DNA of 64,000 nucleotides from Marsupella aquatica. Its lineage: Eukaryota > Plantae > Marchantiophyta. The notes below the pieces were generated by a model. That model saw only the letters and a list, made by a program, of their open reading frames with translations, was not told the DNA's origin and ran no database searches. This document shows positions 15,885 through 23,082 of this stretch, one piece after another. Where the stretch lies: assembly GCA_973895155.1 (NCBI GenBank), contig OZ316894.1, positions 19,630,805 through 19,694,804 of the forward strand, given 5' to 3'. The position numbers and the translations under genes were made by a program. Every line of letters starts with the position of its first letter. Position 1 is the first letter of the stretch.

Positions 15885-18800
15885 ATGCCTGCGACTTTGC
15901 TGGGCGTCACTGCAGGACTCGCTGGTGCGGCTGTCACTGCAGCTGTTGCGAAGATTGATGGCGTAGCTGCAGCTTCACCGTCCGCTTCGTCATCTTCTTC
16001 TTCTTCTTCTTCTCAGCAGCAGCTGCTGCTACGGGGGAGGGGAGGATTGCGCAGCACCAATTCCTGGCGGGGTTCGAGCTTGAGGTCCGATCATGGCTTC
16101 TGCCCATTGCAACAGGCGAAGGCAGCCGTGAGTGACAGCAGCAGGCGAGTGAGAGGAGTGGTGTGTGTGCAGGCCTGGAAACAACCACCACCGCACAAGC
16201 TTCAACGGCACGAGGAGCGAGCTGTGCGCATCAAATCAGCTGTAAATGGGGAAAATGCCGAAAGTGCTGCTGTAACGGACGAGTCTACCGACCAGGTGAG
16301 CAGCAGCACATTCCGGCCGTGTTTGAAGCTTCTTAGTTAGCCAGGAGGCATTCTGGGAACACACTGGCATTTCATGATACTCAGAAAATCTGGAGAGCCA
16401 AACAACCTCTGACGTCCGTCATGCCTAGGACCTAGATAACTCTTCGAACAAATCAAGTTTTAGCCAGATTTTGGAGCTTCTAACCTGCCGGGCATTTGGT
16501 TTCAAATTTTGACCACGATATTGCCCCTGAAGCCAGTGCTCACGTCCCACGTGAGTCTCAGGTTACTCCTCGTGGTTGCCCCTAACGCTCCACGTGGAGC
16601 GCATTGCGTAGTTGGGGTATGTGGCGGGCTGATGGTCGTTATCATCAGCGATTTTGATGCTCACTGTAGGATCAAAATGTCAAATTCTTTTGCTTAACTG
16701 TCCGCAACACTCACTGCAGCCCTAGACATATCGTGACGGAGGGAGAAGGGCCAAATAAATTATGACATTGGTGTGCGCCACTGCTGCCTCACAGCATATA
16801 AGTGAAACGTCGACTTCTCCAGCATCCCATTAACCTATCTATTCCGAACGGTCAGTGAAAGACATTTAGAAGCGTGCTGGAAAGTCAAGATGTTCTTCTC
16901 CCTCCGTTGGGTGATGAACTTGGGGGCTAAGGGCTTTTCTTTCTGGAACTCAATATACGTGCTCCCGTCTTGACCTGGCCTAGAGAAATGTCGATGACAT
17001 CAATGTCCCGCCCAGAACTGCCGACCCCGTTTCCATTGTAGACTGCACGCCTGGATCGTTAGAGATCGGGCATTGTACTAGTCTGTGCTTACTGGATTTT
17101 GTCTTCAGTGATCAGAAACGTCGTCAACTTTTGATTCCTTCAGTTGGGTTCCTCAGGGACACATATCTGAAGTTGGAATTCTCAGCGAGCGATGAGGGAA
17201 AAAATGTTTGCGGAGGATGACAAAGGAGCTTTGTTCATTGTCATGCAATCCAGTGTGGAGTTGACTCTAGAACCAAACCAATGTTCCTTCAGATTGTTAT
17301 ACGGGATGATTTATCTGCTAACAGACCACAGTACGAGAATCTCTAAACTAACAGGGTATGTGGAACGCCTCTTCGTGAGGGAAGTGGAAATGGGGAATTG
17401 GATCTTTGGGAATTTTAAGACGGCAAGGTAGTTGGTTCAGCCGGTAGAACCAATGTGTAGTATTCTCCGCAGGATGAGCCCCTTCGTCGAAATTCTTTTC
17501 AGAGGTTGTGAAACGATGGGTGCTACATTCGTCTTGAGGATGTCTCTGCAGATGGGGAAATCTGTCCTTGGTGGTCTCCTGAACAGCAAGAAGGTAATGA
17601 CGAGCTGGTTGACTGTTTGATTCTGCAGATATCTGTAGAAGCAAATGCTATGATACGATCTGGCATTACTTTTCGGCTGCGGTGAGAATTTGGGTGATGG
17701 GGTGGGCAATTTTTTCTTCTCGTGGGTGCAGATATTATAGGCTGTACTGACATATCTAGAACCTCGCCTCAAATTCGTAGTGTTTTAAAACTCCCTGTAG
17801 CATCTGGCTTTGCAGCCTGAAGCCTCATGTGTAACAGGGACCATTCCGTCGGAGTTTAGATTAAACGGCTCGTGTAGAAACTCTCCAACTGCATTGGAAT
17901 GCTCGCTCGACCTACGTGTAGAGTGAAGGTGTTCCGAATGGGAGGTGAGTACCATATTCTTGTCGAAAGAATGGTCCATGTTGAGACGTGTGTCGTTATC
18001 ATCTACACTGGGTAGGATGCGGGACATTTGTCAGGTCCTGAGTTGAGACGCCTGTCTGACAAAAGTGATTTCTGTGATGGAGACCCAAATTTCTTCACTG
18101 TAGATTAAGTATTCCTGTAGAACCTATCCACTGTGTTCGCATTGAATGGAATTGTGCCACCTTCTCACATCACTACATCAGTGCAGAGTCGGAATAACCC
18201 GCGATTTCTGTCGCATCCTATTGAGGGAATAGGGCAATTAGGACCACACACTGGGACAACCTGCCATCTCAACGGGTCAGATGCCGTTGAGACGACAGTC
18301 ACGACACCTTCCTGAAGGAATGTTGTCCTGGACATGCAGCTACAGCTCCCCAAACTCCGCTGGCCAGTCCTTCCACTACAGAGCAGGGAGCGTTGGCATT
18401 TGAAGGCAGATGGTGGCAAAATCAAGGCAGAGAGTGGCGATTGTTTCGACTACAGAGCAGGAGATTTGGCATTTGAAGGCGGATGGCGGCAAGTGAAGGC
18501 AGAGGGCCACAAAGTAATGAAAGGTACAGTAGATGGTGGCAATTGAAGGCATAGGCGTGAAATGTTGGGCAAGAGCGTCTGAAAGGGGTTTCACAGGAGA
18601 AATAATTACAGATATAAAATATAGAAGGCGCAAGTGTGAAATGGTGGGCAAGAGCCTCTGAAGGGCTATCACAGTAGAAGTTGGGGCACACAACCTCAGA
18701 TAAAAAAAAAACATTGGCACCTTCTAGTTTCGCCAGGAAGATCCTGCATTACGCCAGCAATCGCCAGCAAGTTGCAGAACTTGCCACGTGTCGAGATGAC

Positions 18801-21800: not shown

Positions 21801-23082
21801 TCTCTGCGGGATTTGCTTATCGACTACTCTGGATACTTCCTGGTAGATTGTAGTGTTGCCACAGTTTATTAGGAATGGAAAATTCTAACAACTTCTCGAC
21901 TTTGGCAGTGCTATGATAATTACTTCCAAAAGAACCTGATGAAAGCAGCAGTACTTCGTGGACATGCTGACTGGGGACATCCTCCAAGCAATGCCGGGGT
22001 GTATAACTCGAATCCGCAGGACACGGATTTTTTCAGGGATGGAGGTGACTATGACAGCTATTATGGACGGTTCTTTCTAAAATGGTACTCTCAAGTGCTT
22101 ATCGAGCATGGCAACAGCGTGTTAACTCTTGCCACCCTTGCTTTTGAGGGCATGAAGATCGCTGCCAAGGTCAGCATGTGCTCTTTGACCGACCTGTGTT
22201 TGCGTCATATTAACCCTTGTAACCTCTGGGACTGGAGGATGGCGAAGGTGTTTTCTTCGGATGTTGAATGAGCTAGACTGTAGACATCGTTTGTGGTTGT
22301 CTAGCTCATTACAATTTTGCCTAGTTTGTACTGAACTTACTTTTCACCGTCCTTTTGCTGTGGTCTAGGTCTCAGGAATCCACTGGTGGTACAAAACAGC
22401 CAGCCATGCTGCAGAATTGGGAGCAGGATTTTACAACACTGCGCATCGTGATGGATATCTTCCAATTGCTCAGATGTTGGCAAAGCATCATGCGGCATTT
22501 AATTTTACGTGTGTGGAACTGAGTACACTTGCTCAAGAGGAAGGTTATCCTGAAGCACTGGCTGATCCTGAGGGCCTTGTCTGGCAGGTAATTGACTCTG
22601 TCCCTAATCTAGTAACAGACCACGTTACTTCCCAACCCCTGTATGGCACCAGTTGTGAGTTCTGACCGTGACCGTCTACTTTGAATGCAGGTCTTGAATG
22701 CGGCGTGGGATTCCAACATCAGTGTAGCGAGTGAAAATGCTCTTCCTTGCTATGATCGAGATGGGTACAACAAAATCTTAGAAAACGCAAAGCCCTTTAA
22801 GGATCCCGATGGTCGCCATTTGGTAGCTTTCACGTACCTGAGGCTGAATCCGACGTTGATGGAAGACGCTAATCTTGATGAGTTCGCCCGTTTTGTCAGA
22901 AGACTTCACGGTATTGTCCTTGATCCTCCTCATTGCATCACCTCAAATCCCAGTTTTGATTAGCACATACCAATTCGGCACGCGTCTTGTTTTGCAATAT
23001 GTTTCTGCCCATCTCCTTTTCACATGAACTCAAATGCTGACAAAAGCCATGTTTGCTTCTCTCAGGTGAAGCAAACTCATGA
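15885..23082 (+). CDS. BAM2: Beta-amylase (GH14), BAM2/BAM7 subfamily II, with transit-peptide-like first exon; about 586 aa
   Basis: Exons read from GT-AG sites: 15885-16295, 20704-20772, 21002-21205, 21318-21512, 21631-21795, 21909-22169, 22369-22587, 22691-22910, 23066-23082, all frame-consistent. Motifs [45 protein letters not shown] and ENAL (both catalytic Glu), C-terminal HGE. Exon 1 is Ser/Ala/Arg-rich; its link across the 4.4-kb intron is inferred. Confidence 0.9.
19761..20219 (+). CDS. BED-type zinc-finger ORF nested in beta-amylase intron 1; candidate alternative first coding exon (19761-20162)
   Basis: [12 protein letters not shown]...RCKAC...MEKHVAYEC fits the BED pattern (W-x-[HY]F, CxxC, Hx4C); basic patch [19 protein letters not shown] after codon 134. 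Confidence 0.75.
   Translation: MEQLEQLDNLERKMDPDTGSDSDKLGSSNNAAHSSEQERKSRRGGRPRSLVWQHFIVSGERTDKSRRFNVRCKACGVDMVSRLGTMEKHVAYECEKTDLEAKIRIQGKLAVKSVQAIGNAAKRMKKEGRRRVFEVLPPIEECFPSGFVTENP

Follow-up and report, generated by a model that had tools for sequence, protein, structure and literature searches.

A beta-amylase gene of the liverwort Marsupella aquatica likely encodes two proteins, one of them a fusion with a BED-like finger

The stretch of DNA analyzed here (the window) comprises 64,000 nucleotides of the liverwort Marsupella aquatica (GenBank assembly GCA_973895155.1, contig OZ316894.1, positions 19,630,805 to 19,694,804 of the forward strand; coordinates below count from its first letter). 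It contains a gene for a beta-amylase of glycoside hydrolase family 14 (GH14) resembling BAM2, and the only long intron of this gene harbours an open reading frame (ORF) for a BED-like zinc finger. The gene likely encodes two proteins from alternative first exons, designated A and B, which share all downstream enzyme exons:

15885..16295, plus strand: exon A, first coding exon of 137 codons; donor CAG/GTGAGC, phase 0; predicted chloroplast transit peptide, then an acidic stretch
19719..19742, plus strand: short upstream ORF of 7 codons, in frame with the ATG of the finger ORF; its TGA (19740-19742) shuts the frame 21 nt 5' of this ATG
19761..20162, plus strand: exon B, first coding exon of 134 codons (402 nt); donor GAG/GTCCTG, phase 0; laid out as an acidic/Ser leader, GGRP motif, BED-like finger, predicted long helix and a basic end resembling a nuclear localization signal (NLS)
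20163..20219, plus strand: read-through tail to a TAA, likely intronic and missing from the annotated fusions
20704..20772, plus strand: shared exon with the BAM2 ERDF loop
21002..21205, plus strand: shared GH14 exon
21318..21512, plus strand: shared GH14 exon
21631..21795, plus strand: shared GH14 exon, in which the catalytic acid Glu lies (21730-21732)
21909..22169, plus strand: shared GH14 exon (Pfam PF01373)
22369..22587, plus strand: shared GH14 exon with the W449 equivalent
22691..22910, plus strand: shared GH14 exon; holds the catalytic base Glu (22733-22735) together with the Ser typical of BAM2 and the equivalents of W456 and D490
23066..23082, plus strand: last coding exon with TGA

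The 152-aa finger ORF (19761-20219) lies in sense orientation within the interval 16296-20703, which at 4408 nt is indeed the only long intron, as stated in the original prediction; the remaining seven introns measure 103-229 nt, and all of these are of the GT..AG type. That prediction also gave the correct position for the donor of exon B (20162/20163, exactly 134 codons from the ATG). The acceptor TTGCAG/ACTAGG at 20703/20704 is in phase 0, and both exon A and exon B are phase-compatible with the exon that follows it. The eight shared exons (20704-23082) yield 449 aa of GH14 beta-amylase devoid of internal stops. The predicted products have 586 aa with exon A and 583 aa with exon B, the latter reproducing from the sequence the announced fusion with both catalytic Glu residues. 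The observed-to-expected ratio for CpG is 0.84 in exon B, while the flanking intron has 0.63-0.70 and the shared coding sequence 0.67, consistent with the earlier remark that CpGs are not decayed. A cassette order of exon A, exon B and enzyme was considered and is unlikely: the TGA at 19740 closes the reading frame, and neither of the two AGs that precede the ATG is in phase with the exon A donor. This agrees with the earlier argument that the TGA favours a first exon. In the genomic read-through sequence of a relative (P0011), the stretch matching the upstream ORF 19719-19742 is open and in frame. The long intron also contains degenerate direct repeats of 74-79 nt at 18361-18679.

Sequence comparison indicates that the splice form joining exon B to the amylase is very probably real. 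Relatives longer than the 152-aa ORF numbered just two among 1246 candidates, and both are GH14 proteins: a 579-aa fusion from Calypogeia fissa (P0002, E 1e-66 versus the finger ORF) and a 584-aa fusion from Marchantia polymorpha (P0003, MARPO_0147s0005, E 2e-51). The same two proteins (2 of 148) were recovered with residues 1-140 of P0003 as the query. Calypogeia has two fusion models, and the M. polymorpha fusion is present under five accessions. In both proteins the finger part closes with ..FE and is followed by the ERDF exon (..RRRVFE/AQGKEVERDF in Calypogeia, ..RRKLFE/VHERDFERDF in M. polymorpha), so that the predicted junction is matched to the residue by two independent public models. 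Homology in tblastn stops at the same position. The donor GTCCTG itself looks weak and is one of five GT sites in the final 120 nt 5' of the ORF stop; it was chosen because homology marks it and not for its own sequence. An alternative donor at 20215 (GTAATG, phase 2), compatible with acceptors at 20603 or 20657, was rejected, as it adds residues missing from both annotated fusions.

Calypogeia belongs to the Jungermanniopsida and M. polymorpha to the Marchantiopsida, meaning that the fusion is annotated in two liverwort classes; the linkage to GH14 that the original prediction wanted checked in relatives is seen in these annotations. These classes split roughly 400 million years ago. Identity between the window and the Calypogeia and Marchantia fusions, respectively, amounts to 88% and 73% for exon B, 91% and 78% for the finger core, and 93% and 84% for the enzyme part, while Calypogeia and Marchantia share 79% of the finger core and 83% of the enzyme. 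The genomic read-through sequences P0011 and P0012 match the window as far as the donor and then differ in sequence and length except for V-x-PPI; the tails in the three genomic sequences comprise 18, 27 and 47 aa, of which only the first few residues are common. In a close relative (sequencing run X4), a contig covering 19462-20529 carries nine substitutions and two insertions, none of them within the 402 nt of exon B (naive P 0.014). One change, 20219 A>T, converts the read-through TAA into TAT and removes the stop. The four matched sequencing runs consist of contigs that span introns and have no exon joints, and are uninformative on expression; run X1 may stem from the very source of the window, and a GT..AG joint 17057>19506 in run X3, with a side of 25 letters, was taken as chance.

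The other N-terminus is rich in Ser and Ala (16 and 14 of the first 80 residues of exon A, with two Asp and no Glu) and ends with seven acidic residues among the final 30, as does a model from M. paleacea (P0007). Judged by this composition, exon A is predicted to encode a chloroplast transit peptide and an acidic region. According to the accessible part of PMC6102588, an acidic region precedes the catalytic domain in all 24 aligned BAM2 orthologs. In P0007, the enzyme part of which is 98.7% identical to that of M. polymorpha, a transit peptide-like N-terminus is joined at the same junction (VHERDF), in line with the second N-terminus originally proposed. Given the acidic region reported for BAM2 and the point at which this N-terminus is joined, exon A appears to be ancestral and exon B to be an insertion. 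We consider it probable that both forms are present in one organism.

BED fingers are characterized by an N-terminal W/aromatic motif and C-x2-C..H-x(3-5)-H/C ligands. The window finger fits both parts of this signature with W52, F55, C72, C75, H89 and C94 as candidate residues (ligand pattern C-x2-C..H-x4-C), and W52, C72, C75, H89 and C94 are unchanged across 15 aligned sequences. The Pfam family zf-BED (PF02892) was matched by seven of the eight finger alignment members (best E 2e-4). A phmmer search of 1.84 billion representatives returned 41 matches at E<=0.001, two of them at <=1e-30; when 24 phmmer matches and P0003 were scanned, zf-BED was found in 17 of the 25 and lay above its cut-off in six. 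The BED-type protein GAQ90649 from Klebsormidium (E 5e-7) also shows a sub-threshold match to the hAT dimerisation domain, and zf-BED occurs in about one-fifth of the members of the first and third Atlas clusters (0.96 and 0.95). The structural model (predicted local distance difference test 75) comprises a small finger of the alpha/beta type followed by mention of a helix of 32 residues; among PDB sequences, the finger profile had a single match, at E 1.2. Nine Lys or Arg among the final 30 residues of exon B form the basic segment. Exon B is best described as a divergent, domesticated BED-like finger.

As had been proposed, neither a transposase core nor terminal inverted repeats (TIRs) accompany the finger. 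Of 14 query proteins (12 hAT-like, two enzyme fusions), 13 match the window at the finger and none at a transposase core, two stray 25-aa matches at E ~0.2 aside. The 12 inverted-repeat pairs in the window include none above 89% or TIR-like, and no hAT dimerisation domain is present there. Nor is the exon a repeat copy, as judged by copy number within the window; together with its conservation, this speaks against the dispersed element absent from relatives that had been named as a refuting case. None of the refuting outcomes listed in the original prediction was encountered.

The top PDB sequence match of the Calypogeia fusion is 7upv, which we take to be a BAM8 domain. PF01373 and both catalytic Glu place the shared part in GH14. 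The BAM2 features are retained, i.e., the ERDF loop, the Ser beside the catalytic base and the equivalents of W449, W456, S464 and D490, with W449, W456 and D490 placed by their offset from S464 on the assumption of no indels. The roles of these residues follow the accessible portions of PMC6102588 and bioRxiv 10.1101/751602.

The original prediction overlooked that members of this finger subfamily also occur elsewhere as fusions with different enzymes. A profile of eight finger stretches produced 24 matches among 7998 candidates scored. In Sphagnum (P0091, P0098, P0103, e.g., BDL97_05G082600), an M20 aminoacylase is fused to a related BED-like finger with a basic segment. Several Sphagnum species have this protein annotated with 586 aa, and a contig of 2170 nt carries it as an ORF of 610 aa; genomic read-throughs of the finger diverge past ..KRGEG, and one S. 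magellanicum model has a different start at the same junction. The usual metal-binding motif of M20 aminoacylases, GAQDMKC, reads GAQYTKC in the Sphagnum protein, which may be a pseudo-enzyme. The closest non-amylase finger (P0056 and P0014, Logan contigs; 55% identity) lies in one frame with a hydrolase of the metallo-beta-lactamase fold (454 aa on a 2135-nt contig), the Atlas neighbours of which are bacterial (score 0.80; a lead only).

A FastTree tree with midpoint rooting was built from 53 distinct finger stretches; of 59 proteins supplied, two with short matches and four duplicates were dropped, and P0013 and P0030 were not included. A single clade (support 0.88) unites the three enzyme-linked groups. 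It stands beside the Klebsormidium hAT protein and a further group of fingers, among sequences that a loose motif marked as hAT-like. With a short alignment and sequences picked for resembling the query, the single clade is a lead. A group of related fingers (P0017-P0019, P0022, P0024, P0084-P0088, P0090, P0093 and P0095) all terminate in a PLRLRFPQ-like motif, at what is probably a splice donor. The idea that one domesticated hAT-derived BED finger with an NLS is a reusable module, grafted repeatedly by bryophytes onto metabolic enzymes, is tentative and to us rather doubtful. If it is true, such grafting (onto beta-amylase in liverworts, aminoacylase in Sphagnum and a metallo-hydrolase elsewhere) would represent an unrecognised class of enzyme-based metabolite-sensing transcription regulators, and would have given liverworts a nuclear beta-amylase independently of the BZR1-BAMs.

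We infer that intron 1 acquired a finger exon of hAT origin before the two liverwort classes diverged and that the transposase core was lost. From the upstream start, exon A and the shared exons would yield an ordinary plastid BAM2 acting as a starch hydrolase. From a start within the intron, exon B would replace transit peptide and acidic region by the finger and a basic NLS, giving a predicted nuclear fusion. As the oligomer residues of the BAM2 domain are retained, several weak BED fingers would be offered to DNA by a dimer or tetramer, and the glucan sites would tune this assembly. Arabidopsis BAM2 without the acidic region remains tetrameric and active according to the accessible text of PMC6102588, so the exon B form could still assemble. 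Promoters, localisation and DNA binding are what we infer here, and for the mechanism as a whole, a plastid hydrolase plus a nuclear finger-amylase binding DNA as a glucan-sensitive regulator, we see the chances as even.

A number of observations weigh against this interpretation. Run X3 keeps the window allele including the read-through stop, and the weak-looking donor, together with the V-x-PPI kept just 3' of it in all three genomic read-throughs, would fit some intron retention or a short stand-alone product. What supports either junction is gene models, joined for exon B by conservation. Exon A shares only 23% identity with the M. paleacea N-terminus, no gene model carries both first exons in one species, and a second M. 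polymorpha model (429 aa) begins within the enzyme. The window finger matches zf-BED at E=0.14 and 12.6 bits (range 12.6-13.6), under the cut-off of 20.6, and P0003 does not match it at all; of the intact BED zinc finger originally claimed, the signature residues and the zf-BED-bearing relatives stand, and the finger itself is to be called divergent and BED-like. Foldseek found nothing at E<=0.001, the best match being the ZBED2 finger at E 0.99 and a ZBED3 complex ranking third of 195. Finally, the enzyme exons belong to both forms, so that nothing on the nuclear form follows from the intact catalytic residues; their retention is accounted for by the plastid form alone.

In principle, the fusion and both forms could be real with the finger serving as a nuclear-targeting or protein-binding tag, or as a decoy, and not as a sequence-specific DNA-binding domain. 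This is the main rival, and we regard it as unlikely. The divergence of the finger agrees with it, as does the occurrence of the same module on unrelated enzymes, which would be expected for a generic tag, and the ZBED3 found by Foldseek there belongs to a protein complex. Integrated BED decoys occur in plant nucleotide-binding leucine-rich repeat (NLR) proteins. However, conservation at 78-91% identity extends to the entire finger, the GGRP motif and the basic surface, beyond what an NLS needs, and the nearest characterised relatives are transposase DNA-binding domains.

It is less probable still that the fusion is real but does not arise from two promoters in one organism, either because the forms have a shared 5' end or because one exon is predominant, with the other being minor or restricted to some lineages. 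Every annotated species shows one full N-terminus, as this would predict, yet the window has both first exons open and phase-compatible, the two acceptor-like AGs ahead of the finger ATG do not match the phase of the exon A donor, the frame is shut at 19740, and two Marchantia species show one form each. That gene predictors joined a separate, nested 152-aa gene to the amylase because the phases fit is quite improbable: the identical junction is annotated in two distant genomes, the tail varies in length and sequence among relatives and its stop is gone in a close allele, although the ORF has its own ATG and stop, a weak-looking donor and the V-x-PPI common to three read-throughs. A recent transposon fragment devoid of host function, suggested by the hAT-like transposases among the distant relatives, is largely refuted and hardly credible, since a decaying copy would not show 79% finger identity between liverwort classes while joined to one and the same gene, E<=1e-30 is reached by just 2 of 41 representatives, and the window holds no core or TIRs.

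Elsewhere in the window, ORFs that look like those of a Ty3/gypsy-type long terminal repeat retrotransposon (gag-like, reverse transcriptase, RNase H, integrase), broken by stops, lie on the minus strand at 32176-39279, and an ORF at 43254-43823 has an end similar to the S4-like beginning of an RNA pseudouridine synthase; both were judged by eye.

The preferred reading, a finger-amylase beside a plastid BAM2, can be set against published work. The BZR1-BAM type of fusion is known only from ferns and seed plants. DNA-binding beta-amylases are placed in vascular plants only in the accessible parts of PMC6394054 and PMC10400034, the latter stating that BAM7-like genes are absent from bryophytes; PMC6394054, as far as accessible, trimmed N-termini before alignment and left the question of the bryophyte N-terminus open, and its supplements contain no matching sequence motifs. 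The M. polymorpha protein OAE23062.1 is listed as BAM2 in the accessible parts of PMC10400034 and bioRxiv 10.1101/751602. It is identical with P0008 and carries the finger, so the Marchantia protein used as a reference BAM2 is the finger-bearing form. In agreement with the original prediction, which knew of no such protein, a full-text literature search found no description of a BED-amylase, most subscription papers and bioRxiv supplements being out of its reach, and the terms looked for do not occur in bioRxiv 10.1101/2021.10.14.464379. Word-limited protein searches and the representative search found no such fusion in mosses, hornworts or vascular plants, which is weak evidence of absence. 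A metagenome scan gave two loci (L001, L002) from 243 pattern matches; L002 was discarded as a bacterial chance match. The fusion is very probably real, is conserved and, though in public annotation, apparently unrecognised. A second, independent DNA-binding-type fusion to the BAM2 subfamily would suggest that the enzyme is pre-adapted as a nuclear glucan sensor, and the presence of the gene in M. polymorpha (MARPO_0147s0005, by extrapolation probably Mp5g02120) makes the question of nuclear beta-amylase sensing testable in a simple model plant.

The gene is likely a convergent counterpart of the dual-function BAM7. In maize, as described in the accessible part of PMC10400034, nuclear and plastid proteins arise from two starts of BAM7. 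One BAM2-type gene gives in maize (ZmBAM7-L/-S), and would give in the liverwort, both a plastid BAM2 and an NLS-bearing fusion to a DNA-binding domain; active-site and oligomer residues of the plastid BAM2 are intact, and the exons from ERDF onward are shared by both forms. The domain is BZR1 in maize and a BED-like finger in the liverwort, the exon order is reversed (in the liverwort the transit-peptide exon lies upstream and the DNA-binding exon within intron 1), and the two starts are shown in maize and predicted here. Arabidopsis BAM7 and BAM8 likewise carry a DNA-binding domain at the N-terminus, joined to GH14 of the BAM2/7/8 subfamily. In contrast to these, the liverwort gene lacks a BZR1 domain and keeps both catalytic Glu and the BAM2 interface residues; no Pfam match to BZR1/BES1 was obtained in the finger ORF, exon A or P0003, and the protein is not a BZR1-BAM member. 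With BAM2 it has in common the ERDF loop, the Ser beside the catalytic base and the W449, W456 and D490 equivalents; the stretch of acidic composition in exon A would correspond to the BAM2 acidic region before the loop. The exon B form has a basic segment in place of transit peptide and acidic region. Further hallmarks of BAM2 are its tetrameric state, dependence on K+ and sigmoidal kinetics. Domesticated BED proteins of plants include DAYSLEEPER and NLR-BED. Like hAT transposases and the domesticated ZBED family, the liverwort protein has a BED-like finger preceded by a GRP motif; unlike them, it keeps only finger and helix, on a metabolic enzyme, has neither catalytic core nor hAT dimerisation domain, and has the ligands C-x2-C..H-x4-C. 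The Hermes transposase multimerises and thereby gathers its BED domains, as far as the accessible source describes, and several fingers would be presented to DNA in a similar manner by the proposed finger-amylase.

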